From the NCBI GenBank assembly GCA_000402775.1, contig AQSC01000061.1, positions 6,496 to 70,495 on the forward strand: a stretch of 64,000 bases of DNA. The letters run 5' to 3'. The position numbers and the translations under genes were made by a program. The notes beneath the pieces are model-generated. The model ran no database searches. It worked only from the letters and a program-made list of their open reading frames with translations, and was not told the DNA's origin. This document shows, piece by piece, positions 6,795 through 42,928 of the stretch (the stretch's first letter is position 1; each line of letters starts with the position of its first letter). The stretch is from Euryarchaeota archaeon SCGC AAA252-I15 (GTDB lineage: Archaea > Altiarchaeota > Altiarchaeia > IMC4 > SCGC-AAA252-I15).

Positions 6795-9059
6795 TTGATT
6801 GAAGTTTATAATCTATACACCATGAGCATCAAGCATCCGCTAATAAAGCCCGGGAAAGTTACTTTGAGAGCGTATCAGGAGGCTTTGATAGCCCGATCAG
6901 TCGAAAAAAACACTTTAGTAGTGCTGCCGACGGGATTGGGAAAGACCATGGTCGCGGTCATAATAGCCGTCCAAAGGTTGAGTGAGCATCCGGGTTCCAA
7001 GATTCTTTTTCTAGCACCCACCAGACCGCTCGTCGAGCAGCATAAAAAGACGTTTGATGATCTTACCAACATCACGGACTCGGTGATTTTGACTGGATTG
7101 ATTCCGGTAAAGAAAAGGGGGGAGTTTTGGAGTGAAAACACATTGATTTTCGCGACCCCGCAAACAATTGAAAACGACTTGTTGAGGGGACTGGATTTAA
7201 GTGATGTTTCACTTGTCGTATTCGATGAAGCCCACAAGGCTATGGGAGAGTATGCGTACGTGTATATTGCGGGAAAGTATGCGAAAGCGTCAAAACACCA
7301 GCTCATACTCGGTCTTACAGCGTCTCCTTCCGCTCAAAAGGAAAAGATCGATGAGATAGTTAAAAACCTGTACGTAGAGCGGATTGAGGCTAAGACCGAG
7401 CAGGATGGGGATGTGAAACCTTATGTTGCTGACGTGAAAGTCAAGTGGGTTCAAGTAGAGCTTCCCCAAGAGTTTAAGAAACTCAAGGTTAAAATCGAGG
7501 AGATTTTAAGGGATAGAGTTGGAAAACTCAAAACTTTTGAATACCTTAAAAGCGCGGACTTAAGAAAGGTTAATAAGAGAACACTTCTTGCCATTCAATC
7601 AGAAATTAGAAAGGAGATAACTCAGGGCAAGGACTCGTTTCAGCCTGCGTCCCTTGTTGCCGAAACCATAAAAGTTAACCACGCACTAGAGCTTCTTGAA
7701 ACGCAAGGACTATCCCCTTTAAACGAATATTTTGGGGGGCTTTCAAGCCAGAGGAGTAAGGCGGTAAAAAATCTTTTCGCTGACGCGAGGATGCGGGAAG
7801 TTGTGAAAATCGTACACGACCTGGTTGTGTTGGGGGTAGAGCATCCCAAGCTTGATGAGGTTGGAAGGATTGTAGCGGAATACAAGGATAGGAAGGTGTT
7901 GATTTTCAGCCAGTACCGGGATTCAGTGGAAAAGATTATTGAGCGGTTGAATGAGATGGATATTTTAGCACACGAGTTCATCGGCCAGGCTTCAAGAGGT
8001 GCGAAGTCGGGTATGAGCCAGAAAAAACAGGTTGAGGTACTGGATAAGTTCAGGAAAGGAGATTACACTGCCCTGGTTGCGACTTCAGTCGCTGAGGAGG
8101 GGCTTGACATACCGGCAGTAGACCTCGTCATATTTTACGAGCCAATACCCTCTGAAATACGCTCTATTCAAAGGCGGGGTAGGACTGGTCGCGGGCAGTC
8201 GGGGGAAGTCGTAGTTCTTATGGCCAAGGGTACGAGAGACGAAGGATACTTTTGGTCTTCGGTTCACAAGGAGAGGAAGATGGGGAAACTCGTTAAAAGC
8301 ATGAGGGATGAAGGCTTCATAGAAACGGAGAAGCAAGTAAACGTTAGGAAGGAGGATAAAATTTTTCCAGGGCAAAAAAGCCTTTTAGAGTACGGCGTCA
8401 CCTTTGGTGGTGGATTGAAAATCTATATCGACGGCCGGGAAAAAAGCAGGAAAATAATTGAATGGCTCTCCTCAAAAGCAACAATCGAAATTAGAAACCT
8501 TCCAGTCGGAGACTACCTAGTTTCGGATCGAGTCGCAATAGAGAGGAAGACGATAAACGATTTCCTCCAGTCCATGATAGATAAAAGGCTTTTATCACAG
8601 ATGAGGGAGCTTTCAAGAAACTTTGAGAATGTGATAATGATTTTGGAGGGTACGCAAAATCTTTACTCGCAAAGAAACATACATCCAAACGCAATTAGGG
8701 GGGCTCTCGCATCAATCATGATCGACTTCAAAGTGCCGATAATCTCAACCGAGGACGAACAGGATACTGCAGCCATAATTTACGCTCTCGCGAAGAGAGA
8801 GCAGGAGGCTGAAGGAAGGCTTGTGGCACTTCGGGGTGAGCGGAAACCATTAACCTTGTTTGAACGGCAAATATTTGTCGTGGAATCGCTTCCAAACGTT
8901 TCGGCTGTTTTGGCTAGAAGACTTCTCACCCACTTCGGAAGCATTGAAAATATTGTGAAGGCGGGTGAAAAAGAGCTTATCAAGGTTGAGGGGATTGGTG
9001 GCGCTAAGGCGTCTGAAATCAGGAAAGTTTTGAAAAGCAGGTTTCAAAAAAAAGTTTAG
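6795..9059 (+). CDS. hef: Hef (helicase-associated endonuclease for fork-structured DNA): SF2 helicase fused to an XPF/Mus81-type nuclease and HhH2
   Basis: N-terminal DEAD/DEAH helicase motifs (LPTGLGKT, DEAH: VFDEAHKA, helicase C with QRRGRTGR). C-terminal ERK nuclease motif GDYLVSDRVAIERKTINDFLQS. Tandem HhH at the end. 754 aa. Confidence 0.9.
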   Translation: MIEVYNLYTMSIKHPLIKPGKVTLRAYQEALIARSVEKNTLVVLPTGLGKTMVAVIIAVQRLSEHPGSKILFLAPTRPLVEQHKKTFDDLTNITDSVILTGLIPVKKRGEFWSENTLIFATPQTIENDLLRGLDLSDVSLVVFDEAHKAMGEYAYVYIAGKYAKASKHQLILGLTASPSAQKEKIDEIVKNLYVERIEAKTEQDGDVKPYVADVKVKWVQVELPQEFKKLKVKIEEILRDRVGKLKTFEYLKSADLRKVNKRTLLAIQSEIRKEITQGKDSFQPASLVAETIKVNHALELLETQGLSPLNEYFGGLSSQRSKAVKNLFADARMREVVKIVHDLVVLGVEHPKLDEVGRIVAEYKDRKVLIFSQYRDSVEKIIERLNEMDILAHEFIGQASRGAKSGMSQKKQVEVLDKFRKGDYTALVATSVAEEGLDIPAVDLVIFYEPIPSEIRSIQRRGRTGRGQSGEVVVLMAKGTRDEGYFWSSVHKERKMGKLVKSMRDEGFIETEKQVNVRKEDKIFPGQKSLLEYGVTFGGGLKIYIDGREKSRKIIEWLSSKATIEIRNLPVGDYLVSDRVAIERKTINDFLQSMIDKRLLSQMRELSRNFENVIMILEGTQNLYSQRNIHPNAIRGALASIMIDFKVPIISTEDEQDTAAIIYALAKREQEAEGRLVALRGERKPLTLFERQIFVVESLPNVSAVLARRLLTHFGSIENIVKAGEKELIKVEGIGGAKASEIRKVLKSRFQKKV

Positions 9060-9111
9060 TCCTTTAGGCCTTAAAGTCCCATTTTTTAAAATTCCTTCTA
9101 AATTAGTAATT

Positions 9112-9285
9112 ATGGAGGTTCTCAAATTCTATGTTTCTGAAGAGACCGCTGAGAAATTCAGGGAGAAGGCACTGAGGAAATACAAGTTCAAGAAGGGAGC
9201 CCTATCTAAAGCCGCTGAAATGGCGCTTTCCATGTGGATTAAAAAAAGGGAAGAGGAAGATCTGGGTGAATTATTAGATGAGTAA
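9112..9285 (+). CDS. Small ribbon-helix-helix (CopG/Arc-like) protein, 57 aa. It is not in the ORF track because it is under 60 aa
   Basis: ATG at 9112. Translation is MEVLKFYVSEETAEKFREKALRKYKFKKGALSKAAEMALSMWIKKREEEDLGELLDE*. The beta-strand then two helices pattern is typical of RHH proteins. It overlaps the start of the next gene. Confidence 0.4.
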   Translation: MEVLKFYVSEETAEKFREKALRKYKFKKGALSKAAEMALSMWIKKREEEDLGELLDE

Positions 9286-11308
9286 GAAAGTAAGCGATGA
9301 TTTGAGGGAAGAGTGGAGTTCCATCATGAGCAATGAGGGGGAGAGGAAGAAAAACTTGAGTGAAATACAAAAGATGATAGACTCAGGCTCATCCCGGAAA
9401 AAAAGTGCAAGACTTCTTTTACGGCTTATCGCATACAGCCACGAGATTTCTGTTTCCGATGCATCGAGAATTTTAGGTATGGACAAAAAAATCATTTTAA
9501 CTTGGTCTTTGTTGTTGAAAAAAAAGGGTTTCATTCAAATCTCAGGATTAAAAACAAATAACCCTGTGTTAAAGGCTGAGAGAAAGCTTTTAGAAAAAAT
9601 AAAGCCCCCCAAGGAAAAAGAGGTGGGAGAGAAAAAACCGGTTGAGAGAAAAGATGATCAAGAAGTCAAGGAGAAAACTGAAGAATTAAAGAATAAGCAA
9701 AAAGAGCTTGAGCAAGAGCGGGGAAAAAGAGCTGAACTCGAAGAACAACTTAAAAACATTGAAAAACAACTTTCTGAAGACAATAAAGACAATGACCGGC
9801 TTGAAGAGCTTCGGAATCAATTGATGAAGGAGCGTGAAGAGCGGATTAGAATAGAGGAGCGTTTAAAAAAGGAGGAGGAGGTAATATCTCAAAAGGAGGC
9901 GGAACTTAAAAAACGTGATGCAAGCTTACAGGAGAAAGACTTCGAAATCCGAAAGCGCCTTGAAAAAATAGAGGAGGAGGAGGAGGAGCTAGAGATTTTA
10001 TTCGGTGAAGAAAAAGATTTTGATAAAAAAAGAAGTAGATTAAAAAAGGAATTGAAAAAGATATCTGAAACAGAAAAAAACGTGGATAAAAAAGAGAAGG
10101 AGATAAGCGACCTTGAAGCTGAAATCTCCGAGAAAGGAAAGAAGCTTGAGAGGCTCGAACTCTCGATAAAAAGTCGGGAGGAAGGAGTAGAGAAAAAAGA
10201 GCATGAAGTCATTGAGAGGGAGGGGGATTTAGAGGGTCTTGAAGAAGAAGTATCCAAGAAACAAAATGAGTTAGTAGAGCATGAGAAGGAGTTGGAGAAG
10301 AAGGCTAAGATCTTAAGGAGGATAAAGCAGAAACTCACCCAGGAAAGAGCGGAGATAGAGGAGAAGGCGGAAGAACTTAAGAAGGCTGTGGAAGTCGTGA
10401 TGGAGGAGGGAGAGAAGTTAGAAAAACGGATCAGCGATGAGAGCAGTACCCTTCGTGAGAGGCAGAAAAAGCTTCAAATAATATTTGAGAATGAATACTC
10501 AAAACTCTCTGGCGAGGAGGAGGGTGAGCTCGAAAGTTTTGATGATGAAGTCAGTCCACCTCCACCACCTGATATTCCACCTGAAAACTCCCCCCCTTCC
10601 GGTCCGCCCGACAATGAGGGTGAAGGCGAGGAGACACAAGGAGTGGAAGGCGAAGAGATAGTGGGGGAGAAGGAGTTTGAGGAAGCTATCGAACAATCCG
10701 AAGAGAAACAGGTTGATGAGGCCTCTGAGGTTGACGTGGAAGAACCAGTGGAAAGTAAGCCACCAATACCGGTTGAAGAAGAGTTGGTAAAAACAGAGGC
10801 CGGGCAAACTCCACAAGAAACCGCCACCGTTAATATTACTTCCACGCCGGCCGAGCCAGCAAGCCCCCCAGAACCCCCTAAACCTGAAGCTCCTACTAAA
10901 GAGATACCTTCACCCGAAACCCCAAGTGTTGAACCAGATGAAAGAAGGGTTGCGGAGCTTAAGAAAAAGGAGGCTCTTGAATTCATGGATGAGAAGGTGG
11001 AGGATACTCCGGCTAAAGAACCAGATAATCCCACCCCGAAAAAGTTGTTGGAAGACCTTAAGGAAAGAGGTCCGATAAGAGTTAGCGATTACATTAGGGA
11101 GAACAACCTCGAAAAAGCGGTAGTTGACGGTTGGATTAAGGATTTGAAAGGGAAAGGCGTAATTGAACTTCAGAAACACATTATCGGTGGATTAGAGATT
11201 AAACTCACAGCTCAACCTAAACAGAAAAAAACTGAGAAGGCTGAGAGTGAGGAGATCAAGCAGATTAGGGATGAGCTTCGGCGCTTAAGAGATGAGTCTA
11301 AGGAATAA
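9278..11308 (+). CDS. Large coiled-coil protein (676 aa) with a wH-like N-terminus, a K/E-rich coiled coil, an acidic proline-rich linker and a C-terminal wH-like domain
   Basis: Long heptad-like KE-rich stretch (EELKNKQKELEQERGKRAELEEQLKNIEKQL...). Linker PPPPDIPPENSPPSGPPDNEGEGEE...PASPPEPPKPEAPTKEIPSPETPSVEP. C-terminal GPIRVSDYIRENNLEKAVVDGWIKDLKGKGVIEL. Confidence 0.5.
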   Translation: MSKKVSDDLREEWSSIMSNEGERKKNLSEIQKMIDSGSSRKKSARLLLRLIAYSHEISVSDASRILGMDKKIILTWSLLLKKKGFIQISGLKTNNPVLKAERKLLEKIKPPKEKEVGEKKPVERKDDQEVKEKTEELKNKQKELEQERGKRAELEEQLKNIEKQLSEDNKDNDRLEELRNQLMKEREERIRIEERLKKEEEVISQKEAELKKRDASLQEKDFEIRKRLEKIEEEEEELEILFGEEKDFDKKRSRLKKELKKISETEKNVDKKEKEISDLEAEISEKGKKLERLELSIKSREEGVEKKEHEVIEREGDLEGLEEEVSKKQNELVEHEKELEKKAKILRRIKQKLTQERAEIEEKAEELKKAVEVVMEEGEKLEKRISDESSTLRERQKKLQIIFENEYSKLSGEEEGELESFDDEVSPPPPPDIPPENSPPSGPPDNEGEGEETQGVEGEEIVGEKEFEEAIEQSEEKQVDEASEVDVEEPVESKPPIPVEEELVKTEAGQTPQETATVNITSTPAEPASPPEPPKPEAPTKEIPSPETPSVEPDERRVAELKKKEALEFMDEKVEDTPAKEPDNPTPKKLLEDLKERGPIRVSDYIRENNLEKAVVDGWIKDLKGKGVIELQKHIIGGLEIKLTAQPKQKKTEKAESEEIKQIRDELRRLRDESKE

Positions 11309-20437: not shown

Positions 20438-21340
20438 GTGAGTGGATTACTTGATTTACTGGTTTTCGGGGATACGGCAATAGACCATTTTTATGAAGTG
20501 GACTCGTTTCCAAAGACGAACACTGCAGCTGAAATATTTAATAGTCGAAAGTTTTACGGGGGTATGGGAGCAAATACTGCCGTTGTTGCGAAATCTTTGG
20601 GTTTGAGTGTTGGTCTTGTCTCGGTTATTGGAACGGATGTTGAAGACTACCGGAGGTACTTGGATAACTTGGGGATTGAATTACATTTGAAGGGTGTTTT
20701 CGGAGACACGACTCAATCGCTTTTCTTCAAAAATAACGGCTCGCAAATCAGTTTCTTCTACAAGGGAGTGACCGAAAAACTAGATGAATTAGAGCCGGGC
20801 AAAACATTTGAAAAAGAATTGATTAAGCGAACTAGCACGGTTTATCTCGGAAGAACATACTTAAACTTGCAGAAAAAAGTTGTAAAGTCGTGCAGGAGCA
20901 AGCTTTTAGTATATAATCCGGGATATGGAGTTTTCGAGTTTACGACCATACCTGAAGACTTCAAGCAGATTTTGTCTAAGACTTCCGTCTTGATTTTAAA
21001 CCAGCATGAACTAGACCACCTTATGGCTTTAGGTTTTAAGATTGGGGGTTCTCACGGACCCAAAACAACGATTATTACCAAGGGGGCTAAAGGTTGCTCG
21101 GTTTACGGTAGAAACACTGAAGTTGATATCGGCGGTTTTAAAACGGACGTGATTGACGCTTCAGGCGCAGGTGATGCCTTTAATGCAGGCTTTATCGCCG
21201 GGCAGGTTAAGGGTTATGACATCTTCGATTCCGTAAGATTTGGGAATGCGACTGCGTCATTTATTGTTGAGGCGTGGGGTTGTCAGACAAATCTTGCCGA
21301 CTGGGATAAAGTCAAAAACAGGTTCAACAGCATAAAATGA
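20438..21340 (+). CDS. PfkB-family carbohydrate/nucleoside kinase (ribokinase-like)
   Basis: C-terminal DASGAGDAFNAGFIAG matches PfkB signature 2 (DTxGAGD). N-terminal GG...N Rossmann-like region. 300 aa. Confidence 0.75.
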   Translation: MSGLLDLLVFGDTAIDHFYEVDSFPKTNTAAEIFNSRKFYGGMGANTAVVAKSLGLSVGLVSVIGTDVEDYRRYLDNLGIELHLKGVFGDTTQSLFFKNNGSQISFFYKGVTEKLDELEPGKTFEKELIKRTSTVYLGRTYLNLQKKVVKSCRSKLLVYNPGYGVFEFTTIPEDFKQILSKTSVLILNQHELDHLMALGFKIGGSHGPKTTIITKGAKGCSVYGRNTEVDIGGFKTDVIDASGAGDAFNAGFIAGQVKGYDIFDSVRFGNATASFIVEAWGCQTNLADWDKVKNRFNSIK

Positions 21341-22347
21341 GTGAATGGATTGCGTTTGATTGTGTTGGAAAGAGTGTTGAAAAGACAATTGATTTGTTGT
21401 TCAAGTCTTTTAATCTTAAATTTTGGCTTAAGCTTGCATTAGTTGTTTTTTTAATAAATGGGAGCGTTGGAAACAGCCTTAATTTACGTTTTTATGAATT
21501 TGATTCTGGGAATTTTGATTTGATGCAGTATCTCCCCATCTTGATTGTAATTACACTATTGCTCGTATTGATTGTTGTTTTTTTCACTTTTATCGGGAAT
21601 GTGGCTGTATTTGTGTTTCTTGATTCTGTTTTGAAAAAAAGCGTTAAACTAGTGGATGGATTGCACGAGAATCTTGGCCGGGGATTAAAATTGTTTTTGT
21701 TTATGATTTGTTTGTCGTTAATTTTCATTGTTTTCACGGGAATTTTATTCATTCCATTAATACTTATTTTACAGTTACTGTCAGGTGGTTTGAAATTCGC
21801 ACTAATTTTAGTTTACGGTTTCATTGCATTCATAATTTTATTCACAGCCTTGATTTTTTTGAGTGTTGTGGGTTTATTCACGGTTGATTTTGTAGTACCC
21901 TTGATGTATAGTAAGGGGGAGGGTATCCTCGACTCTTGGAAGAGTTTGTTGAAGGTCATAAAAAAGAATCAAGGACAATTCGTGATGTATGTGATTGCGA
22001 GAATACTATTAGGGATTGCAACCGGGATTTTATCCGCAATTTCTGGTTTCATCTTGGTTTTCATTCCATTTTTCATTATCGGGATTATTGTTGCAGTTAT
22101 CTCTGAATCGGGAAACTTACTATTTTCAAATCCAGCAATACTTGTTTCTTCCGGAATGATAATATTTTTAATAGCGATGGTTTTAGGATATTTGATGTCA
22201 ATAATCCTACTTCCAATATACGTATTCTACAGGTATTTTAGCCTTATTTTCATAGGAAAAATCATTCCAGAACTTGAGTTTTTCAAAGGGGAAAAAGAGG
22301 CTGATGAACCGAAAGTAAAGAAGGAACTTTACGTTGAGGTTGAGTGA
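21337..22347 (+). CDS. Hypothetical polytopic membrane protein (336 aa)
   Basis: Very hydrophobic, with about 8 predicted TM helices rich in F/I/L. It overlaps the stop of the upstream kinase. No catalytic motifs. Confidence 0.45.
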   Translation: MSEWIAFDCVGKSVEKTIDLLFKSFNLKFWLKLALVVFLINGSVGNSLNLRFYEFDSGNFDLMQYLPILIVITLLLVLIVVFFTFIGNVAVFVFLDSVLKKSVKLVDGLHENLGRGLKLFLFMICLSLIFIVFTGILFIPLILILQLLSGGLKFALILVYGFIAFIILFTALIFLSVVGLFTVDFVVPLMYSKGEGILDSWKSLLKVIKKNQGQFVMYVIARILLGIATGILSAISGFILVFIPFFIIGIIVAVISESGNLLFSNPAILVSSGMIIFLIAMVLGYLMSIILLPIYVFYRYFSLIFIGKIIPELEFFKGEKEADEPKVKKELYVEVE

Positions 22348-23307
22348 ATGAAAGCATACGTTGTTGGAGGATCAGGTTACACGGGTCGTGAGCTTATAAG
22401 AATCCTCGAATCTCATCCGAAAGTCGAAGAGGTTAAGGTGTCCTCTACGAGATTTTCCGGGAAGAAAGTGTCTGACGTTCATAAAACTCTCACGACAAGC
22501 CTTGTTTTCGAAGAGTTTAATGCATCAAGTGCAAATAGTTGCGACGTTGCTTTCTGTTGTGTGCCGCATACTAAGGCCATGGAGATCGTAAGTGAGCTTG
22601 AAACAAAGGTTATTGATTTGAGCGCCGACTTTAGGTTGAAGGATGTTTCAGTCTATGAAAAGTTTTACGGTGTCAAACACTCGAATCCAAAACTCGTGGA
22701 AAATGCGGTTTACGGTCTTCCAGAGTATTATCGCAAGGAGATTAAGGATGCCAGGATCGTTGCAAATCCGGGGTGTTATCCCACTGCAGTAGTGTTAGCT
22801 GTGAGGCCTTTAATTGAATCCTTTGACGTGCAAAGTGTAATCGCGGATGCGAAAAGCGGGGTTTCAGGGGCGGGAATGGTTAAGGAAGATGAGTATCAAA
22901 AGTTTGTGGGAGATGAGAATTTTAAGGCTTACAAGCTTACAACACACCAGCACGCTCCGGAAATAGATCAGGAGGTGGGTTTTCCTGTTTTTTTCACGCC
23001 GCATCTCGCCCCCTTCGATCAGGGAATTTTCACAACAATACACGCCTTAACACTTGCAAATCCGCAGGAAGTTAAGAGATGCTATGAGGAAAAATACAAG
23101 GATGAACCATTTGTGAAATTAGTAAAAGAGCCTGATGTCGCCTCCGTCAGAAATACGAACATGTGCCAGATTGGGGGGTTTGAATCCGACGGGAAACGGT
23201 GTGTTATCACTTCTGCAATTGACAATCTGGTTAAGGGAGCGAGCGGACAGGCAGTGCAGAACATGAACCTGATGTTTGGATTCAAAGAGACGATTGGTTT
23301 AGTGTAA
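22348..23307 (+). CDS. argC: N-acetyl-gamma-glutamyl-phosphate reductase (ArgC/LysY family)
   Basis: MKAYVVGGSGYTGRELIRIL is the N-terminal NAD(P) Rossmann motif. The catalytic-Cys motif is ANPGCYPTA. 319 aa. Confidence 0.85.
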   Translation: MKAYVVGGSGYTGRELIRILESHPKVEEVKVSSTRFSGKKVSDVHKTLTTSLVFEEFNASSANSCDVAFCCVPHTKAMEIVSELETKVIDLSADFRLKDVSVYEKFYGVKHSNPKLVENAVYGLPEYYRKEIKDARIVANPGCYPTAVVLAVRPLIESFDVQSVIADAKSGVSGAGMVKEDEYQKFVGDENFKAYKLTTHQHAPEIDQEVGFPVFFTPHLAPFDQGIFTTIHALTLANPQEVKRCYEEKYKDEPFVKLVKEPDVASVRNTNMCQIGGFESDGKRCVITSAIDNLVKGASGQAVQNMNLMFGFKETIGLV

Positions 23308-23452: not shown

Positions 23453-25297
23453 TTAGATTATTAATGATAGGCTGATGAGATTCCAACCTGTAAGTAATTC
23501 ACAGAGGTGGCAGCGGTATACGCAACCTGACATGATATTACTTGAATCATTGTAGTTGAAGACTGTGTTACATGTGTTATTGTCTCCTGTTGTTGCATCG
23601 CCGTCGTATATGTCGTAGTATGCACCCCCTGAGATATTGTTAAAACAAAAGTAGTTATCATACAATGCATTCCCTGTGCTGAGATTGTCAATGTAAGAGC
23701 CCCAAGTATTGTAATCTGCAGTATTGTTGATTAAAGTGTTATTAGTTGATTCTAAAATTATTATACCTGCACTGTTGTTCCTAGCTGTGTTTGATGTCAA
23801 TGTGTTGAAATTACTAGATGATATGAGGATAATCCCTCCCTCATCGTTGTTAGTTACAACATTATTAGATAGAGTATTGTTACTCGACAACTCAAAAAAC
23901 ATGCCATATTCGAAATTCGATACATTACATTTTTTAACCGTTACATTACTCACATTTAGTCCAACAATACCAAAATAAAGCCCTTTTCCTTGTATTTTAT
24001 GTCCACGACAATCTAACGTTATGCTGTCGGTTCCAACGATTAATCCCTCCAACGAATCCTTATCAGAGCAATTAAGGTCGGCATTCAAACTAATGTCGGA
24101 CGTTAAAATCTCACCGCAGGGGACACAGGGATTCACACACCCTGTCGTGTTCGTGTCATTGTATTTGTAGGTTGTGTCACAGGTGTTGTTTTCACCTAGC
24201 GTGTTACCATTTATATAGATGTCATTGTAGATAGTCCGTTGTAGATTATTAAAACAAACGCGATTACCATACAATTTATTTTCCATACTTGAATTATCAA
24301 TGGACAAACCATGACGTAGATTATAGTTGACTGTGTTATTACTAAATGTGTTATTGAAACTATATGGAATAAGTTTTATTCCAAGTCCATTATTGTTAAC
24401 TGTGTTTTCTTCGATTTGAGTATGGCTAGATGATTCGAGATATATTCCCTCATCATCATTATTGCTCACCGTGTTGTTTATTATTAAGGAATTAGTAACT
24501 GTATCGAAGAAAACACCAACATCATTTCCAATAATACTATTATTGAAAAGCTTATTGCCAGTTGACAAGAAAGAAAAAACACCATAATCGCCGTTAATAA
24601 TTGTGTTAGATATTATTGAATTGTAGTCACTTGACGGGCGCATGTATATACCTTCGTCATTATTGGATATAGTGTTATATGAAAGAATATTACCATCCGA
24701 CTCATCAATAACGATGCCATCATCGCTATTATCATTGATAAAGTTGCCAATAATCGAGTTATTGTGTGACCCAACAAGATAAATCGCTTCTGCACTCCCG
24801 TTAATAATAGTATTGTTTAAGATTGTATTGCTTTCACCCAAAAGTATCCCTATGCCTCCATTGTTATTTGTGAGAGTATTAGATGTGACATTGGTTAGAT
24901 TTGATGAAAAAATGAGGATAGTACCCTCACTAAAACTCAGAGTATTATTGTAGAGGAGACAATTATTCGATAAATCTAGGAATATGCCGTAGTCAAAATC
25001 CCGGATTACACAATTCTTTATTGTAACGTTTGAAATATTATGAAGCTGGATGCCAAAGAAGAACGGCTCACCTGAATCATTCAATGACTCATTTCTAGAA
25101 ATCAAATAACCATTACAGTCAAGTGTGATATCGTCAACACCCATTATCAAACCATGGCCACCGCAGTCAAGATTCGAAGATAAGTTAGTGTCCACAAGGA
25201 TTGTGTCTCCACAAGATACAGCATCAGCTACGGAGATAAGAAAAACAAGTAACACAATACACCTAAAGAACCTACTAGTTACGCCCATATTATCCAC
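23453..25297 (-). CDS. Secreted surface protein with two tandem parallel beta-helix (PbH1/NosD-like) domains, very rich in N-glycosylation sequons, with a C-terminal hydrophobic anchor
   Basis: Signal peptide MDNMGVTSRFFRCIVLLVFLISVADA. Two ~290-aa modules with repeated NxxxN/GIxL beta-helix rungs (NTISNNDEGIYM..NTIINGDYGVF..NSIIGNDVGVFF..NTVSNNDDEGIYL). Cys-rich caps (NNTCDTTYKYNDTNTTGCVNPCVPC / NNTCNTVFNYNDSSNIMSGCVYRCHLC). Dozens of N-x-S/T sites. Ends LISLSLII. Confidence 0.7.
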   Translation of the reverse strand: MDNMGVTSRFFRCIVLLVFLISVADAVSCGDTILVDTNLSSNLDCGGHGLIMGVDDITLDCNGYLISRNESLNDSGEPFFFGIQLHNISNVTIKNCVIRDFDYGIFLDLSNNCLLYNNTLSFSEGTILIFSSNLTNVTSNTLTNNNGGIGILLGESNTILNNTIINGSAEAIYLVGSHNNSIIGNFINDNSDDGIVIDESDGNILSYNTISNNDEGIYMRPSSDYNSIISNTIINGDYGVFSFLSTGNKLFNNSIIGNDVGVFFDTVTNSLIINNTVSNNDDEGIYLESSSHTQIEENTVNNNGLGIKLIPYSFNNTFSNNTVNYNLRHGLSIDNSSMENKLYGNRVCFNNLQRTIYNDIYINGNTLGENNTCDTTYKYNDTNTTGCVNPCVPCGEILTSDISLNADLNCSDKDSLEGLIVGTDSITLDCRGHKIQGKGLYFGIVGLNVSNVTVKKCNVSNFEYGMFFELSSNNTLSNNVVTNNDEGGIILISSSNFNTLTSNTARNNSAGIIILESTNNTLINNTADYNTWGSYIDNLSTGNALYDNYFCFNNISGGAYYDIYDGDATTGDNNTCNTVFNYNDSSNIMSGCVYRCHLCELLTGWNLISLSLII

Positions 25298-26800: not shown

Positions 26801-26830
26801 CCAAGAGAAAAGGTAGTAAGCCTTAAAAAA

Positions 26831-29800
26831 TCAGTCGTTCCTCTTAGCTTCAAGTTTCAGAAGTTTCCCGTGCAAATCCCGAAGAAGGGGTACCCCAATG
26901 TCCTCATCGATTTTCCCAGACTTGATTTTACGCTTCAAAAGCTTAATCTGCTCGGAAACCTCCCTTATCTCGTATTCAAGACCTGAAGCAACCTGTCTTT
27001 TAGTCTGCTCTTTAGGGACTTGTTTTCCGATAACATCCCAAAGCTCGGTATAAAGGTCTTTTTCACCGCTTTGTTCAAGTTGTTTTTCAGCAAGCCTATA
27101 CCAGGCGGGAAGAGTTGAAGATCGTGTATTTATAACTTCCATAAAATCCGAGAAATCCACTTTCCGTTCGGGCTTGCCCGAAAGCGCCTCAGCCCAAGGC
27201 CGCTCTAAAGCCAAATCCACGCAAGTTTTAACGTCCGCTGAAGAAAAACCCTCCATGAATCCAGACAATTTCTTGAAATCCAATCCAGTTTCAACCTGCT
27301 TGCCCTGAGTGTGTAAACTAAGAATCTCGGACCTCGTTTCAGCATCAGGGGCTGAAACAAAAACCTGTTCCGTAAACCTTCCAGCACGTCTAAGCGCAGG
27401 ATCAACAGCCCACGGAGCATTCGTGGACGCCAAAACCATGACACCATCACGGTCTTTGAATCCGTCTAATTCAGTTAGAAACTGGTTTACAAGAGTCCTA
27501 GATTTACCGGCAGCCTCTCGTCTCGGTGCTATCGCATCAATCTCATCAAAGAATATTATTGAGGGAGTGTTTCGGACAGCACGCTCAAAAATCGCGTTAA
27601 GCCTTCGCTCGCTTTCACCCACTTCTTCAGAGAGAATGTCAGTGATTTTCACGTTGAAAAAAGTTGCATTACATTCTCCGGCAGTAGCCCGCGCAAGATA
27701 TGTTTTACCGCAACCGGGGGGGCCGTAAAAGAGGATTCCGCCTCCCACATCGCGAGAGTACTTCGCGGAAAGTTTTGGTTTGGTTAAAGGGTAAACTATG
27801 GTTCTTTTGATTTTTTCCTTGGTTGAAGACAAGTCCGCAACATCCTTAAACTTTAATTTGGGCTTGATTGCAGCCTCAATACCGCCAGCATACTTCATGA
27901 TGTCTTCCAACATGTTTGAGAAAACCTCAGCCTCACCACTCTCATTAATCTGGGTTAAAGCAAGCTTAAACCAGGGTGGAAGAGAACTATTCCGCTCTTC
28001 TATTGCGGAAATAAAATCTTTTTGATTTGCCTTTCGAGCCGTCGTGCCGGAAAGAGCCTCAGCCCAAGGCTTGTCAATCGCGTCATCGCATACAGCTTTA
28101 ATGTCAGCGCTAGAGTATCCTTCAGTCAATTTTGAAAGTTGCTTGAAGTCGACGTTAGAGGATATTGGACGGTCCCGAGTATGGATTTCGAAAATCTTTT
28201 CTCGAACATCCTTCCCGGGAGGTGGAACATATATCTGGTCGGTTAAACGTCCAGCCCGCCTTAAGGCAGGATCAACATCCCAAGGAGTGTTAGTAGAAGC
28301 CAAGACCATGACACCTTCACGGTCTTTGAAGCCGTCAAGTTCTGATAAAAACTGGTTTACCAAAGTCCGGGATATTCCGGCAGACTCCCTTCTGGGAGCC
28401 AGGGCATCAATCTCGTCGAAAAATACGATTGCCGGAGTGTTTTGGTAAGCGCGTTCGAAAACATACTTAAGGTTTTTTTCAGGGTCTCCAATCTCGCTTG
28501 AAAGAATGTCGGTGACTTTGATGTTGAAGAAGGTTGCATCACATTCGCCGGCAGTAGCCCTTGCAATGTAGGTTTTCCCGCAACCAGGAGGACCGTAGAG
28601 TATGGCACCTCCACCAACCTTTTTCTTGTATTTCCTGGCAATCTCCGGTTTAACGAGAGGATTGATGATTGAGTTGGTGACCTTATCCTTGACATCCTCC
28701 ATATTCGCAACATCAATAAACCTGAGTTTGGGCTTAACCTCCTGGTCAACACCGCCCGCATGCCTTAAAATTTGACGCGACAAATCAGCAAACAACTCGA
28801 CTTCCCCGCTTTTCCTGATCTGCTTTTCAGCCTGCTTGTACCAGGCAGTCAAAGAACTAGGCCTTACACCCAAAACAATCAAGAAATCATTCATAGTCGC
28901 CTTACGCGCGGGAGCGCCCTTTAAAGCCTCCGCCCAAGGAATCTCAAGAGCATCATCACAAACAGCCTTGATATCGGCACTGGAATAACCTTCAGTAAGC
29001 TCTCCAAGCTTTTCAAGATCTACTTTAGATGAGACGGGCCGCTTTTTCGTGTTTAATTTGAAAATCTCGAGACGAGTCAAGTAATTTGGGGGGGGGATGA
29101 AAATCAGATCTGCAAATCTCCCAGGCCTTCTAAGGGCGGGATCAAGATCCCATGGAACGTTAGTGGAACCAAGAATTAGAACATTCTCGGAGTAATTTTC
29201 AACGCCATCCATCTCCATTAAAAACTGGTTCACTATAACCCTTGAACTAGATCCTGCACTGTCACGCCGCTCAGCCAACGCATCAATCTCGTCGAAAAAC
29301 AGGATGCAGGGAGCACTCTTGCTCGCTGTCGAAAAAACCTCGTGAATGTTTTTTGCTCCGGCCTCATCACCCCCTGAAATTATGTCTGAAGTGTTTATGT
29401 TAAAGAAATTTAGTCCGCATTCACCCACAGTAGCCCGTGCGATATAGGTTTTACCGCAGCCGGGAGGACCGTAAAAGAGAATCCTTCCCCCGCCCTTCTT
29501 CTCATATTTCTTAGAGACTTCAACGTGTTGGAGGGGGTAGATTATTGCTTCCCTGATCTTCTCCTTAACCTCCTTTAAATCCGCAACGTGAGAGAAGTTT
29601 ATTGTGGAGGCCTCAATCGGAACCGAACCCCCAGCACCCATCTCAGTTGAAAATGAGATGGGTTCAAGCTTCACTTCAGAGGGAAACCCAGTCTTAAGTC
29701 TCTTGTAGCCTTTCGGACAGGCGAGATATTTTATTTCCGTTGCAGGACCCTCACCGCCCTTATGCTCAATTATTGCATAGGGTAAGTACACAAGTCCCTT

Positions 29801-30463
29801 AAGTATTACTTTTCCACCGAAAAATTGGCCTAACACCTCAGCAACCCTGTCGTGGTTGAATTGAATCGGATCTTTTATGTAATCATCATCTCCCATATCG
29901 GATGTGTGCAAAGCAGCGCCTATATCATACCTTAGGTTTGAAAAAACGGGTAGGTGAAAACCCAACCGTACATAATACCGGTGCATTATTATGTCGTCTT
30001 CAAGGTAGTATCTTAAGAAATTGAACATTTGACTTGACTCCCTCTCATAAGTTTCGATAAAACCTTCATTTTTAAGTTCAGCGACCACTTCACGATCAAG
30101 TTGGTCGTAGGGAATGCTCCCATACTCGTATAATTGGCCTAATGTGGTGATTATCACGTCCTTGTAGTCGATTATTTGCCGTACTAATCCGTCTTTAACA
30201 AGCTTGGGATCCTTGAATATGCTCCCTCTTTTAGTGTAATATAGGTCACAATGTGATAAGTCGACGTAAAAATTGTTTTCTCTCCGGTCAAAAGAAGTTG
30301 TCTTGAAAAAAACCCCTTTTTTTACTTCCTCAGTCCTCAATACCTTAAAAACTCCTAAGGGTGCATAACGTTTTGTTACGGACCCTTGAGCGGATTTCAA
30401 TATTTTTTCTTCAATGTCTTCAGGTATTGTGAAGGCTTGAGTTTGAACTTTTGTAATCTTCAT
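26831..30463 (-). CDS. Giant AAA+ ATPase (1210 aa): a Cdc48-like N-terminal region followed by three tandem Vps4/meiotic-clade-like AAA modules, each with its own C-terminal helical subdomain
   Basis: Three Walker A sites (ILFYGPPGCGKTYIARATVGEC / AILYGPPGCGKTYIARATAGEC / ILFYGPPGCGKTYLARATAGEC). Three Walker B sites (FFDEIDA). Three copies of STN(V/T/A)PW.(L/V)DPALRR(P/A)GR. Three copies of TEGYSSADIKAVCDDA..PWAEAL. The modules are about 75-80% identical at nucleotide level between units 2 and 3. Confidence 0.75.
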   Translation of the reverse strand: MKITKVQTQAFTIPEDIEEKILKSAQGSVTKRYAPLGVFKVLRTEEVKKGVFFKTTSFDRRENNFYVDLSHCDLYYTKRGSIFKDPKLVKDGLVRQIIDYKDVIITTLGQLYEYGSIPYDQLDREVVAELKNEGFIETYERESSQMFNFLRYYLEDDIIMHRYYVRLGFHLPVFSNLRYDIGAALHTSDMGDDDYIKDPIQFNHDRVAEVLGQFFGGKVILKGLVYLPYAIIEHKGGEGPATEIKYLACPKGYKRLKTGFPSEVKLEPISFSTEMGAGGSVPIEASTINFSHVADLKEVKEKIREAIIYPLQHVEVSKKYEKKGGGRILFYGPPGCGKTYIARATVGECGLNFFNINTSDIISGGDEAGAKNIHEVFSTASKSAPCILFFDEIDALAERRDSAGSSSRVIVNQFLMEMDGVENYSENVLILGSTNVPWDLDPALRRPGRFADLIFIPPPNYLTRLEIFKLNTKKRPVSSKVDLEKLGELTEGYSSADIKAVCDDALEIPWAEALKGAPARKATMNDFLIVLGVRPSSLTAWYKQAEKQIRKSGEVELFADLSRQILRHAGGVDQEVKPKLRFIDVANMEDVKDKVTNSIINPLVKPEIARKYKKKVGGGAILYGPPGCGKTYIARATAGECDATFFNIKVTDILSSEIGDPEKNLKYVFERAYQNTPAIVFFDEIDALAPRRESAGISRTLVNQFLSELDGFKDREGVMVLASTNTPWDVDPALRRAGRLTDQIYVPPPGKDVREKIFEIHTRDRPISSNVDFKQLSKLTEGYSSADIKAVCDDAIDKPWAEALSGTTARKANQKDFISAIEERNSSLPPWFKLALTQINESGEAEVFSNMLEDIMKYAGGIEAAIKPKLKFKDVADLSSTKEKIKRTIVYPLTKPKLSAKYSRDVGGGILFYGPPGCGKTYLARATAGECNATFFNVKITDILSEEVGESERRLNAIFERAVRNTPSIIFFDEIDAIAPRREAAGKSRTLVNQFLTELDGFKDRDGVMVLASTNAPWAVDPALRRAGRFTEQVFVSAPDAETRSEILSLHTQGKQVETGLDFKKLSGFMEGFSSADVKTCVDLALERPWAEALSGKPERKVDFSDFMEVINTRSSTLPAWYRLAEKQLEQSGEKDLYTELWDVIGKQVPKEQTKRQVASGLEYEIREVSEQIKLLKRKIKSGKIDEDIGVPLLRDLHGKLLKLEAKRND

Positions 30464-30564: not shown

Positions 30565-31026
30565 ATGGAATTATTCAAGAAAAATATTGGAGATTACTTG
30601 GACGTTTTGAAGACGCCGATTGTATTGTTAATTGCTTTGTCTGTTATTCAATTTGTGGTGAGAGTAATAGGGTATTTTCTGAAAAACGGGATAATAAGAA
30701 TTCTGGGGTGGGTTATTCTAGCATTTATGGAATTGTTCTGGCTCCTCATCCTGATTTACGTTAGCTGGATAGTAGTCCACTCGAAAAGATGGGATGCAAT
30801 GAATACCCTTTTTGCGGGGGTAATTTTTGGATTAATCGGCGGATTGGTCGTAGGAATCGGCCTTGTTTTTGGAAATATTGTAGCCTTGATACTTTCCGAT
30901 AGTTGGACTCTGTTTAAAGTCGGGGTCTGGTCCCTGGCAATAACGGTTTTAATACCGATAACAATGTGTGTTTTCGGAGGGTTTATATCCGGGATAATTG
31001 GTATATTATTGGAAAACAGGGGGTAA
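30565..31026 (+). CDS. Hypothetical membrane protein (153 aa, 4 TM)
   Basis: Hydrophobic ORF with Gly-rich TM helices (GVIFGLIGGLVVGIGLVFG). Confidence 0.4.
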   Translation: MELFKKNIGDYLDVLKTPIVLLIALSVIQFVVRVIGYFLKNGIIRILGWVILAFMELFWLLILIYVSWIVVHSKRWDAMNTLFAGVIFGLIGGLVVGIGLVFGNIVALILSDSWTLFKVGVWSLAITVLIPITMCVFGGFISGIIGILLENRG

Positions 31027-31030
31027 AAAA

Positions 31031-31555
31031 ATGCATGTCGACTATGGAGTGTGTGTGAAAAAAGGAATTGATGTATTCAAGGATAATGCACTAGCTTTTA
31101 TCATAGCGACATTCATTGCTATTGTTGGTATGATACCAGTCATCACTGCACCACCTCTTATCGCAGGTCTTTTTTACATGGCAGACAAGGGAATGAAGGG
31201 TAGAAAAGTTGAGGTAAGCGATATCTTCGAGGGATTAGACTATCTTATACCATCACTTATTTATGGATTAATCGTCCTTGTAGGACTTATGGTCTTCATA
31301 GTTCCTGGCGTAGTGATACTAATCCTTGGAATCTACGCCATGCCAATACTAGTAATAGACAAAGTTGACGGGCTTACAGCTGTTAAAAAGGCCTTGAACT
31401 TTGGTAAAGAAAACTTCCTCGATGTTTTAGGAGTGTCATTTATGACAATGGTCCTCTTTATTGTAGGAGAATCCGTATTTATGGTCGGAAGCCTTATAAC
31501 GATTCCAATTGCGATTATTGCGATAACAAAGGCGTATGAAGTGTCAATGAGCTAG
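31031..31555 (+). CDS. Small polytopic membrane protein, paralog of 44228..44824
   Basis: Start placed at ATG 31031, which is preceded by AGGGGG. It shares PPLIAGLFYMADKGMKG..V..SDIFEGLDYL with the 44228 protein ([32 protein letters not shown]), then 3-4 TM helices. Confidence 0.55.
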   Translation: MHVDYGVCVKKGIDVFKDNALAFIIATFIAIVGMIPVITAPPLIAGLFYMADKGMKGRKVEVSDIFEGLDYLIPSLIYGLIVLVGLMVFIVPGVVILILGIYAMPILVIDKVDGLTAVKKALNFGKENFLDVLGVSFMTMVLFIVGESVFMVGSLITIPIAIIAITKAYEVSMS

Positions 31556-40636: not shown

Positions 40637-41190
40637 TGCCTCTTGTGCCCCCCCCCCCCCGAAATAAAATCTTTTGTAATGAGCAATCTGTCCACTCCAA
40701 CACCATAATCCGCAAAGCCTGTGAAATATGCAGGATAAAAATCTGATGCTTGAAAACCCATTTTATTTAAATAGCTGTTAAGTTGAGGGCCATTTCGGGG
40801 GCTAGCCAACGTGTAAAACATTCCAGAGCCGTCATGGACTGATATTTCACGTGTCCTTTCAGCCATCATAGTCCCAATTCCCATTCCCTGAAACCCTGGA
40901 TTTACAGAAGTCGAGAGGGGAAAAACTCTTTTATCACGGTCAAACAGTAAAGCCTTAACACCGGTTAATTCCTCATTTAGTCTAGTACCCAATAGTACAC
41001 CCGCTCTTGAGGCAATAAACATAGTGTGTGGAGTTTCACCGTTTCCCCCAAAGGCCGTGTCATCAACAACGGATGCGGCAAAAACAGCAGCAAGTGTTGA
41101 CAAATGTTCTACATCACAAGCCCTGTAGGATGAAGGTAAGTCCCCAACCCTATTTTTTACTTTTGACATCCTGTTTTTTTGATAATACAA
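40510..41190 (-). CDS. GNAT-family N-acetyltransferase. The genuine domain is roughly 41190..40662; the track ORF runs past a poly-G tract into out-of-frame hydrophobic read-through
   Basis: GNAT motif A (VNPGFQGMGIGTMMAER) and ...DRLLITKDFISGGGG at the poly-G (40648-40660 on the + strand are 13 C). The residues after GGGG (HKRQWILNSLFLWMIRMVYLML...) look like non-coding read-through. Confidence 0.5.
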   Translation of the reverse strand: MYYQKNRMSKVKNRVGDLPSSYRACDVEHLSTLAAVFAASVVDDTAFGGNGETPHTMFIASRAGVLLGTRLNEELTGVKALLFDRDKRVFPLSTSVNPGFQGMGIGTMMAERTREISVHDGSGMFYTLASPRNGPQLNSYLNKMGFQASDFYPAYFTGFADYGVGVDRLLITKDFISGGGGHKRQWILNSLFLWMIRMVYLMLFLEALWLIHFCVARVIQIITLVL

Positions 41191-42928
41191 GCATTGACTC
41201 AGACGTTTTAAATCTACCAGCCAACCTGTCTGGAGTTACAAGATACTTAGCAGAAAACCCAGCATTAAAAAGCATGTCAATCAACTTGTAATCATGGGCG
41301 TAAACCAACACAGACCCATTCTGAAAAACCTCATTTGAAAAATTAGATTCTTTCCCAATAAAAGGGAGGTTATGCCAATTAGGCTCAGAAGGAATATCAA
41401 AACCCAACCTCTTCTCAATAACCATCCTGTGTTTACCACGACCATAATAATCAAATAATACACGTTTACCAGAAAAACCACGCCAATTCAAATCAACAAT
41501 CATTGGAGGAAAATCACGTGTATCACAAGTCGTCCAAACCTTATTTTTATTATAAGCGAGTGCAACCTGCTCTACAAAGTCCATTAAATAATACCTAAAA
41601 TCATATTCATCATATTGCGGTGCTACGGCAACGCCATGACAAAACAAACCCCCGTTAATATCAAAGACTAATGGGACATCACCCACAATATTTCCTTTAG
41701 AGTCCTTCACACAAATCAAAAGGCCTGTCCGCATAATCCGGATGAGAGTATGCGGCTCTTCTCCCGCAACACCTTGAACTTGTTTCTCAAGATTTGATGC
41801 TTTTATAGCATCGTGAGGACCACTGGCTATGAAAGCGGATAAATCCATGAAATCAGATTTCATATTGATTAATGGGGGAGAAGGCTTCCAGGATATAGAA
41901 TGTTTTTTCGCGATAAGATCGATTCCCCCATCATCATTAATTAATCCTGAAATCTCACATCCCTGGTTAGTAACGTATTCCTCCAAATCAATTTGACTAT
42001 TAAGAGATAAATGCAGACCCTCTTTCTGATTACCCCCCACATGTCCTTGGGATTGATTTATATTGCTAGAAGGAGGACGCTGAACCAAAAGCTGATCAAG
42101 ACCCTCCCCGAAATAATTTTTTAAGTGCTCGGTAATGGTGAAACCGCCAGTAAGATACCTTCTTAGCGAGTTAATGTTACCCTCCTCAAGAGTACCCCAA
42201 AAACGTTTGTGAGGATACAAAGAAATAGCCTTCTTAAGGATTCCAGCCCCCACACCATAACCCTCAAAACCCGTCCTCACACAAATATTGAATATGTAAA
42301 AACACTCATTACGATCATAAATGAATTCTCCAAAACCAATAAGATCCCTAAACTGATCCCGCACACCCAGCAACATGCTAGTAGTCGCAAGCATTGAAAG
42401 AGAGAACATGTCTCCCGACTCAATACCAAAAAGCTCGCGATTTAATTTAAGAGCCTCAGAAACCTGAGTTGGATTAACAAGTAATTCATAGATGTAAGGT
42501 GACTTCTGTAAGCTTAAAGCCAGACTATTTTTTTCAACCCCGAATTTTTCAGAGATATAGTCTAAAGCCTGCTGTGTTGAGCCCGCCTTATGAACCATGG
42601 AGTTAAGACTATCGAGAATAAAAGTGGATTTAACAAGTGATTTAAGAACATTAGGCTCAATCCTACCCTTGTAAATACGAGCGATCACGGAGTTTAATCC
42701 CTTATACAACACCTCGTATTTATCATCTTTTAATAAGACTTTGAAAAACTTATTCGAATCCACTTGAGTGATGTGGGCTAAATCGTCAAGCTCAAGCGAT
42801 ACGAATCCGTAAGCCTGTATGCTCTCAAGCCTATCAGATACAACCTGATCAAGTACGGAATTAATACGATTAATAGTCGTAAATTCTCCGAATTCCTTCA
42901 GGCCCAAATCAGATAGTTCATCAACCAC
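41150..42928 (-). CDS. Large (592 aa) protein with an internal GNAT acetyltransferase domain and a second GNAT-like C-terminal region
   Basis: Central CVRTGFEGYGVGAGILKKAISLY (GNAT motif A). The C-terminal region has GNAT-like beta-strands (IVGDVPLVFDINGGLFCHGVAVAPQYDE). The N-terminal ~200 aa have no recognised domain. Confidence 0.45.
   Translation of the reverse strand: MVDELSDLGLKEFGEFTTINRINSVLDQVVSDRLESIQAYGFVSLELDDLAHITQVDSNKFFKVLLKDDKYEVLYKGLNSVIARIYKGRIEPNVLKSLVKSTFILDSLNSMVHKAGSTQQALDYISEKFGVEKNSLALSLQKSPYIYELLVNPTQVSEALKLNRELFGIESGDMFSLSMLATTSMLLGVRDQFRDLIGFGEFIYDRNECFYIFNICVRTGFEGYGVGAGILKKAISLYPHKRFWGTLEEGNINSLRRYLTGGFTITEHLKNYFGEGLDQLLVQRPPSSNINQSQGHVGGNQKEGLHLSLNSQIDLEEYVTNQGCEISGLINDDGGIDLIAKKHSISWKPSPPLINMKSDFMDLSAFIASGPHDAIKASNLEKQVQGVAGEEPHTLIRIMRTGLLICVKDSKGNIVGDVPLVFDINGGLFCHGVAVAPQYDEYDFRYYLMDFVEQVALAYNKNKVWTTCDTRDFPPMIVDLNWRGFSGKRVLFDYYGRGKHRMVIEKRLGFDIPSEPNWHNLPFIGKESNFSNEVFQNGSVLVYAHDYKLIDMLFNAGFSAKYLVTPDRLAGRFKTSESMLVLSKKQDVKSKK

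Follow-up and report, generated by a model that had tools for sequence, protein, structure and literature searches.

We analysed a stretch of 64,000 nucleotides (nt) from the archaeon SCGC AAA252-I15, a member of the Altiarchaeota (contig AQSC01000061.1, positions 6,496 to 70,495; this whole stretch is called the window below), and describe here a gene on its reverse strand that encodes a protein of 1210 amino acids (aa) with three AAA ATPase modules. As listed in Table 1, the protein starts with a domain that we call X, continues with the modules M1, M2 and M3, and ends in a helical tail; proteins built in this way, with one, two or three modules, are referred to as the X-AAA family. No second AAA or X gene was found within the window, and the 1210-aa protein has no hydrophobic segment.

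Table 1. Features of the X-AAA locus (positions are those of the window; the borders of M1, M2 and M3 were set by the analysts).
Feature	Position (nt)	Strand	Residues (aa)	Remarks
AAA gene, complete coding sequence	26831..30463	-	1-1210	ATG start; domain X, three AAA modules (m1, m2, m2') and helical tail
Domain X	29612..30463	-	1-284	includes the conserved linker GSVPxE (aa 279-284)
AAA module M1, class m1	28742..29611	-	285-574	Walker A aa 332-339 (29447..29470); pore-loop-1 equivalent G365-D366-E367 (29363..29371)
AAA module M2, class m2	27875..28741	-	575-863	Walker A aa 624-631 (28571..28594); pore-loop-1 E657-I658-G659 (28487..28495)
AAA module M3, second copy of class m2	27008..27874	-	864-1152	Walker A aa 914-921 (27701..27724); pore-loop-1 E947-V948-G949 (27617..27625)
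C-terminal helical tail	26831..27007	-	1153-1210 and stop codon	motif G(E/K)IDE..(Y/F)..L..D(Y/L)EK.LI.LE
TATA-like A/T-rich box CATATAAAAAAA	30488..30499	-		~31 nt upstream of the ATG; read directly
T6 run	26825..26830	-		directly after the TGA stop; read directly
Two overlapping small genes for four-transmembrane proteins	30565-31026, 30998-31555	+		divergent from the AAA gene; no Pfam family

Pfam matches the protein with AAA (PF00004) in three stretches (total E-value 1.6e-119) and with AAA_lid_3. Each module carries the Walker A motif GPPGCGKT, the Walker B motif FFDEID (at aa 393, 685 and 975), the stretch STNxPW..DPALRR(P/A)GR(F/L) (at aa 433, 723 and 1013, in the variants STNVPW, STNTPW and STNAPW), G(Y/F)SSAD (at aa 496, 786 and 1076) and S(S/T)L..W(Y/F) (at aa 540, 830 and 1120). 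All three therefore have what defines a classic-clade AAA module (Walker A, Walker B, sensor-1 Asn, two Arg fingers and a helical lid), and the Walker A Lys, the Walker B DE, the sensor-1 Asn and the RR..R Arg fingers are invariant across the family. In the AlphaFold2 (AF2) model, the ATPase core of each module is followed by ~120 aa of helices, predicted as a four-helix lid with two extra helices; post-lid helices are predicted at aa 537-552, 828-842 and 1118-1132. An earlier note on this DNA had claimed an open reading frame with three complete modules, each followed by its own helical domain of that length, and an unusual AAA architecture; this picture holds, in that the motifs stand at all three positions, the model agrees on the helices, and one chain carries three complete, apparently active modules. 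The motifs that the note ascribed to every helical domain need some correction: TEGYSSADIKAVCDDA is exact in M1 and M2 while M3 reads MEGFSSADVKTCVDLA, and the final motif, given as S(S/T)LP(A/P)W(Y/F), reads SSLPPWF in M2 and STLPAWY in M3 but deviates in M1 (SSLTAWY).

The module repeat is far beyond chance, but old. Protein identity between the modules is 54% (M1/M2), 48% (M1/M3) and 56% (M2/M3), and codon-aligned DNA identity is 60%, 56% and 62%, respectively, with only 39-44% at third codon positions. For M2 and M3, a DNA identity of 75-80% had been noted earlier; only their ATPase cores come near it (blastn gives 74.4% over 375 nt, and the best 90-nt window reaches 83%), against 62% over the whole unit and 44% at its third codon positions; the longest exact run is 15 nt between M2 and M3, and 15-20 nt among all modules. 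Two antisense open reading frames (27309..27728 and 28044..28448) do mirror each other as described: both use the same antisense frame, one in M3 and the other in M2, with 67% identity over 75 aa, a by-product of the module repeat.

The identical protein is present in a public collection, and clustering at 90% identity brings together four variants of the full 1210 aa, found on nine or more contigs of up to 147 kb (sources: NCBI, Logan, JGI, ENA and GEM). In addition, 16 further protein clusters (41-69% identity, 95-100% coverage; from NCBI, JGI, ENA and Logan) have three sets of Walker A, Walker B and TNxPW motifs with the same spacing. Orthologous modules of different species (66-70% aa identity for M2-M2, 65-69% for M3-M3) are closer to each other than M2 and M3 are within one protein (56-57%), so the duplication predates the divergence of these species, which does not support the recent internal duplication or gene conversion that had been suggested. 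Assembly collapse or expansion is not realistic, because the repeats are only 62% identical in DNA, and with the architecture shared by orthologues down to 41% identity, both a recent duplication and an assembly artefact can be dismissed. Of the two outcomes that the earlier note had named as fatal to its reading, an assembly artefact of a two-module gene is excluded by these copies from five sources, and a standard Cdc48 D1/D2 pair with a degenerate third unit does not describe a protein with three complete modules.

Comparison with family profiles and solved structures places the modules closest to Cdc48. With NCBIfam models, single modules score 204-214 bits with CDC48, 173-188 bits with PAN/FtsH, and 169-180 bits with CdvC (archaeal Vps4), which is the lowest of the classic-clade profiles for each module. 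M1 and M2 match the D2 half of the CDC48 profile, and the best stretch of M3 matches the D1 half with a similar score. The whole protein stays below the family cut-offs of CDC48 (TIGR01243; 618.3 bits summed over three modules, cut-off 802.65), CdvC (NF041006; 509.6 bits, cut-off 650) and IetA/IteA (NF042959; 294.5 bits, cut-off 510), and it has no MIT, Vps4_C or CDC48_N match in Pfam or NCBIfam. The best solved relatives of M2 are VAT D2 (200 bits) and p97 D2. For the history of the modules we computed neighbour-joining trees, first of 177 modules and then of a subset of 69, the latter with 200 bootstraps and with Cdc48 D1 as the root; in this second tree, which contains no Vps4, PAN or FtsH sequences, the family and Cdc48 D2 form a clade in 200/200 bootstraps. 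The Arg-finger region RR(P/A)GR(F/L) holds the GR(F/L) of the LRPGR(F/L) motif in the Cdc48 sequences that we read, and the Cys of GPPGCGKT matches the Cdc48 modules among them, where it is typical of D2. We conclude that the modules are best described as diverged Cdc48-D2-type modules and not as meiotic-clade ones.

Domain X looks new at the level of the fold. An AF2 model of aa 1-286 (built with 51 sequences) has a mean predicted local distance difference test score (pLDDT) of 88.7 and a predicted template modelling score (pTM) of 0.83. The model is made up mainly of beta structure, including two hairpins of great length (strands 28-49/55-68 and 218-236/239-246), and a helical segment is inserted at about aa 93-155. 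Foldseek searches of this model against PDB and BFVD gave no match (best E-value ~0.18, with a template modelling (TM) score below 0.2 in PDB), the X profile had no match below E 0.79 among PDB sequences, X had no match in Pfam, NCBIfam or PADLOC, and hhalign gave a probability of 0.2% against the Cdc48 N-domain profile. Searching 1.84 billion representative proteins with the X profile returned only 121 matches in three architectures: X-AAA, Mrr_cat-X (~370-490 aa, with X after an N-terminal Mrr_cat restriction-endonuclease domain, PF04471; e.g., P0158 in L004:6001-7470) and Mrr_cat-X-PAP2 (~580-680 aa, with a C-terminal membrane PAP2 phosphatase added). Those X-containing fusions that carry names are from Altiarchaeota. 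Conserved throughout are RY.P, N.FYVDL..LYY, the helical L..L...G......L......L...G.I, P.F....Y.L and YLPY..C.Y; X is basic in the AAA family (median isoelectric point 8.9, net charge +5.5) and neutral in the Mrr_cat fusions. Judged by its profile, X is a genuine, previously undescribed domain, which in these searches is confined to one phylum and three architectures. The fusion proteins lie among P0135-P0232 (further examples are P0178, P0191 and P0215).

The tail at the other end of the protein is predicted as two helices (aa 1161-1181 and 1187-1199). It has no HbYX ending: the protein ends in ...LEAKRND, and the Cdc48 controls end in LYM, YIG or AYG. SHOCT (PF09851) matched 2 of 25 family tails (best E-value 1.5e-4), and the tail of the 1210-aa protein itself had no Pfam match.

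The X-AAA family has so far been found only in Altiarchaeota, an uncultivated archaeal phylum: the named relatives are all Candidatus Altiarchaeota or Altiarchaeales, except for one 'uncultured archaeon' and one 'Methanobacteriota archaeon'. All relatives have an X head of ~285-310 aa, one, two or three TNxPW-bearing AAA modules and a tail of 60-100 aa with the motif G(E)IDE..(Y/F)..L..DYEK.LI.LE, and the two-module form (~950 aa) is the most frequent. By their gene neighbourhood, the two- and three-module forms are positional orthologues. A gene for aspartate-semialdehyde dehydrogenase (Asd) lies a few genes downstream in the window and in the loci of P0002 and P0021 (three modules) and of P0010 and P0011 (two modules). 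DUF7544 and PfkB flank Asd in all of these loci except that of P0010; B3_4 is found upstream in all except that of P0021, together with TrkA/TrkH in the window and the loci of P0002 and P0010.

In the tree, the first modules (class m1) split from all later modules (class m2) with 72-80% bootstrap support; M1 groups with the first module of one- and two-module relatives, and the sole module of one-module proteins is of class m1. Within the lineage of the window protein (clade A, P0001-P0005), the M2 modules form one clade and the M3 modules another, both at 100%; they sit among the second modules of the closest two-module proteins, and their joint monophyly reaches only 40%; the best non-orthologous match of M3 is the second module of two-module proteins (63% to m2 of P0010). 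A second set of three-module proteins (clade B; e.g., P0007, P0008, P0013 and P0021) has M2 and M3 that are 63-71% identical and that form a clade with m2 of the two-module protein P0065 (96% bootstrap support). The M3 modules of clades A and B group in 0/200 bootstraps, and the identities of the X heads agree with separate origins of the three-module form in the two clades: X of the 1210-aa protein is 41-54% identical to X of two-module proteins and ~24% to X of clade B triples. As read from these trees, the family architecture is X-m1-(m2)n-tail with n = 0, 1 or 2, n = 2 arose at least twice, and the third module in the window lineage comes from an old in-place duplication of the second.

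One contig (JGI 3300031862; L006:10001-14891) carries tandem X-AAA paralogues, a two-module gene followed by a one-module gene with a 14-nt overlap, and another has two two-module X-AAA genes 2.8 kb apart (L005:2685-5510 and 8289-11168), which suggests hetero-oligomers or specialised machines. We rejected a fusion with such an adjacent one-module paralogue as the source of M3, as one-module proteins are of class m1 and M3 is of class m2. Two relatives have a TPR head instead of X: P0089 (1004 aa) with two TNxPW modules, and P0045 (1303 aa) with three, possibly a third independent case of the three-module form.

The family departs most clearly from its relatives in pore loop 1. A passage of PMC5511170 describes the conserved pore aromatic as nearly universal in AAA proteins, with Cdc48 D1 as a known deviation. 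In a residue-level alignment to VAT D2, K-W-V-G of VAT D2 corresponds to S-E-I-G in M2, and the equivalents are E-E-V-G in M3 and G-G-D-E in M1. None of the 166 family modules has an aromatic residue at this position (0/77 m1 and 0/89 m2/m3 modules), in contrast to 6/6 Cdc48 control modules (F, Y or W). Glu is found at the position in 54/89 m2/m3 modules and at the following one in 43/89; modules of class m1 lack even the pore-loop Gly. The catalytic residues, unlike the pore aromatic, are invariant across the family. The only relatives with SKYVGE or SKWVGE are the two TPR-headed ones, in their later modules and not in the first. We know of no stacked classic-clade AAA protein or unfoldase that has no pore aromatic in every ring.

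The protein thus shares with Cdc48/VAT/p97 the best profile and structure match of every module (the D2 half for M1 and M2), GPPGCGKT, the DEID Walker B, GR(F/L) and two Arg fingers in the second region of homology, and a lid with post-lid helix, and in the AF2 model its tandem modules superpose on D1-D2. It differs in having three modules instead of two (D1 and D2), none of them with a distinct D1-type signature; in the replacement of the double-psi barrel CDC48_N by X; in the lack of an aromatic residue in any ring, where Cdc48 D2 (and archaeal D1) has an aromatic-hydrophobic-Gly pore loop; in a conserved helical, perhaps weakly SHOCT-like tail in place of the HbYX C-terminus of archaeal Cdc48; and in its score below the Cdc48 family cut-off. 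In a genome scan made from the full-length alignment, the peptide looked for was the generic YGPPGCGK, and the matches listed are mostly ordinary Cdc48 loci and not family members. Among these matches, two Altiarchaeota metagenome-assembled genomes (MAGs) contain canonical CDC48 genes (L017:1936-4095 and L020:51-2222; 719 and 723 aa, TIGR01243 1093 bits); the L017 protein, of which the whole sequence was read, ends in AYG and has the pore loops KYYG and MWVG. Because these two other genomes encode canonical Cdc48, the X-AAA family is probably an additional paralogue family in Altiarchaeota and not the Cdc48 of the phylum.

We propose, with a confidence that lies just on the favourable side, that the protein is a lineage-specific Cdc48/VAT paralogue with modules that are all Cdc48-D2-like, and that it would form a stacked homo-hexamer of ~820 kDa. 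We infer a hexamer, the stacking of its rings, ATPase activity and a mode of substrate handling as follows. The modules would stack as coaxial rings, as in the closest solved relatives, and the resulting particle would have four tiers, with a collar of X domains above three active ATPase rings, and the helical tail at the C-terminus. The Altiarchaeota-specific domain X would select the target, and all three rings are predicted to bind and hydrolyse ATP. Substrate would probably not be gripped in the usual manner of aromatic 'paddles'; as these are gone and Glu stands at the equivalent positions, one would expect either a non-threading remodeller or segregase that is driven through X, or a special substrate, perhaps a basic one, that is handled through an acidic pore.

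We favour stacking because one-, two- and three-module orthologues are most simply reconciled if tiers are added while six heads and six tails are kept, and because the closest relatives are all homo-hexamers in which each module makes up one ring. The full-length AF2 monomer model (pLDDT 81, pTM 0.47) aligns over 580-675 columns to chains of p97, CDC48A, Rix7 and NVL (TM score 0.55-0.68, normalised to the target), from which two consecutive modules would lie roughly as D1 on D2; this superposition on the p97 D1-D2 tandem is suggestive of stacking. Several points weigh against our proposal. With a monomer pTM of only 0.47, the placement of the modules relative to each other is uncertain, and the AF2 model may echo p97 in the training data. 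The module numbers 1, 2 and 3 all divide six and would fit a single planar ring of six modules equally well. The pore aromatic is lost in every ring, and the pore might not be used at all. We found no informative conserved neighbour across the orthologous loci examined, and the evidence for canonical Cdc48 comes from two other Altiarchaeota MAGs and not from the source genome.

The main rival, which we consider unlikely, is a planar pseudo-hexamer in which two three-module, three two-module or six one-module chains close one six-module ring with a centre that does not thread. Dynein, midasin/Rea1 and RNF213 have several AAA modules per chain in one planar ring, the centre of which does not serve for aromatic-paddle threading; they contain six modules of another AAA+ clade, several of them degenerate, and the X-AAA protein has three near-equal, intact classic-clade modules. 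A planar ring would account for the module numbers as divisors of six and for the loss of pore-loop aromatics in all modules, which is expected where no polypeptide is threaded; the conserved tail could mediate oligomerisation, and the low pTM leaves the arrangement of the modules open. However, the closest relatives are all stacked type II AAA proteins, and the AF2 model puts two modules on the p97 D1-D2 tandem. A planar ring would also carry 6, 3 or 2 copies of X and tail, depending on which of the orthologous forms at this locus builds it, and distinct m1 and m2 classes have been kept over long times, as expected for separate rings.

Rather unlikely, too, is an ATPase associated with conflict, defence or nucleic acids, in which X would sense or bind DNA and the AAA rings, as effector or remodeller, would work on a nucleoprotein target. 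X stands C-terminal to Mrr_cat in ~60-80 Altiarchaeota protein clusters and is basic in the AAA family, and the IetA models of PADLOC match the protein (324 bits over three modules). From the alignment and the predicted secondary structure, we infer that the helical insert of X could be a winged helix, and X might bind nucleic acid; neither Foldseek nor the hidden Markov model (HMM) searches returned a winged-helix match for X. The IetA/IteA match reflects the general similarity among AAA proteins, scores less than CDC48 and stays under the IteA cut-off (294 vs 510), and X itself has no PADLOC match. Known IetA pairs with an adjacent protease, IetS, whereas the neighbours of the AAA gene are MatE and small membrane proteins. 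The gene keeps a conserved housekeeping position across 41-69% identical orthologues, not that of a variable island, and some Mrr_cat-X proteins end in the membrane domain PAP2, which does not suggest DNA.

It is improbable that the protein is an ordinary threading unfoldase of the Cdc48/VAT type with one extra ring, feeding the 20S proteasome. Its best profile and structure matches (CDC48, VAT and p97) and its intact ATPase motifs would suit this role, but there is no CDC48_N domain, no aromatic pore loop in any ring and no HbYX C-terminus, the CDC48 total falls short of the cut-off (618 vs 802.65), and true CDC48 genes are present in Altiarchaeota MAGs.

We see very little chance that the modules are of the Vps4/CdvC (meiotic-clade) type, as first proposed, in an ATPase that acts on ESCRT-like or cytoskeletal polymers. 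The likeness to Vps4/katanin is limited to TNxPW after sensor 1, found in all modules, and to the conserved post-lid helix, whose alignment with the CdvC profile extends into the C-terminal part of the latter (as far as position 351-354 of 370); this helix is not diagnostic of Vps4, because it is also present in Cdc48 D2. Against it stand the CdvC scores, the lowest of the classic clade for each module and below the cut-off in total, and the Cdc48-type GR(F/L) in the Arg-finger region; a tree with only Cdc48 D1 and D2 already places the modules with D2. Vps4/CdvC has a single AAA module, a MIT domain, a beta-domain in the lid and a KWxG-type pore loop, whereas the 1210-aa protein has three modules and none of the others (its lid is predicted to be all-helical, with no beta insertion). 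That the three-module gene arose from a two-module one by faulty assembly or by a very recent tandem duplication has next to no chance of being right: tandem repeats are prone to mis-assembly, and an unrelated match (P0085, with CDC48_N and three modules, the first two identical at every motif and pore-loop stretch compared) may be such an assembly expansion, but here the modules are only 56-62% identical in DNA with short exact runs, at least 16 diverged clusters share the architecture, and four near-identical full-length variants were recovered.

Classic-clade AAA unfoldases have one ring (PAN, Vps4 and FtsH) or two (Cdc48/p97, NSF and Pex1/6), and the purpose of the second ring is still debated. 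EccC of type VII secretion has three consecutive P-loop ATPase modules in one chain, which are thought to stack as hexameric tiers; it belongs to the FtsK/HerA superfamily and not to AAA, is membrane-anchored, and has no sequence relationship to X-AAA. Other multi-AAA chains occur in metagenomes as well: in P0093, three Walker A motifs follow CDC48_N, and P0120 from the cyanobacterium Xenococcus has five AAA modules in 1635 aa. The novelty lies in a combination of features: the three-module form is conserved and evolved twice, all modules are intact, all pores are non-canonical, and the new head domain is shared with nuclease and phosphatase fusions. Full-text literature searches found no description of the X-AAA family or of a three-AAA classic-clade protein. 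The 'three-tiered' hexamers of Yta7/ATAD2 (PMC9898759) share a non-ATPase top tier above stacked AAA tiers; they have two AAA tiers, the second of them inactive, under a bromodomain, in contrast to the three active tiers under X that we propose.

It is a tentative and rather doubtful suggestion that the Altiarchaeota hold a series of one-, two- and three-ring AAA proteins on the same X head and tail, with a three-ring form invented twice, in which intact rings with acidic residues in place of the aromatic paddle represent a new working mode of the classic clade. If true, this mode would mean either that basic substrates are threaded through an acidic pore or that targets are remodelled without a pore, and its targeting would rest on a structurally new domain that is also coupled, in the same phylum, to Mrr-type nucleases and a membrane phosphatase. 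The repeated addition of a further intact ring under a constant head and tail offers a natural experiment on ring stacking, and aromatic-free pore loops in all rings challenge the usual hand-over-hand threading picture for the clade. X looks new at the level of the fold and is apparently restricted to one phylum, and the identity of its partner would give a lead to biology that is specific to the Altiarchaeota. Practical use is limited at present, as the organisms are uncultivated; the protein can nonetheless be expressed recombinantly.

The rest of the window reads as an ordinary archaeal chromosome, with Hef, HerA, NrdD, GatD, TiaS, TrkAH and Asd. Upstream of the AAA gene, the TATA-like box CATATAAAAAAA suggests, from what is generally known of archaeal promoters, a putative promoter of the gene's own with a very short leader, and the T6 run is a possible archaeal oligo-T terminator; together they suggest that the gene is monocistronic. 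The downstream MatE gene starts at 26800, 30 nt from the AAA gene. We rejected an operon with MatE, as the adjacency is not kept in orthologous loci and the T6 run follows the stop codon. The two small genes upstream (Table 1) are conserved within clade A, and their L002 counterparts are 57% and 70% identical. A conserved upstream partner was also rejected: small membrane proteins recur upstream in other lineages, but without detectable homology.

Further observations concern other genes in the window. The trio of PfkB kinase, DUF7544 (uncharacterised) and aspartate-semialdehyde dehydrogenase genes (20438-23307, +) is conserved near the X-AAA locus in several Altiarchaeota contigs. Downstream of MatE lies a gene for a NosD/right-handed beta-helix protein of 614 aa (23453-25297, -), which has a G+C content of 0.36, below that of its neighbours, and is absent from the orthologous loci examined. 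Two large open reading frames have no Pfam match at E <= 1e-5, one of 676 aa (9278-11308, +) and one of 592 aa (41150-42928, -).

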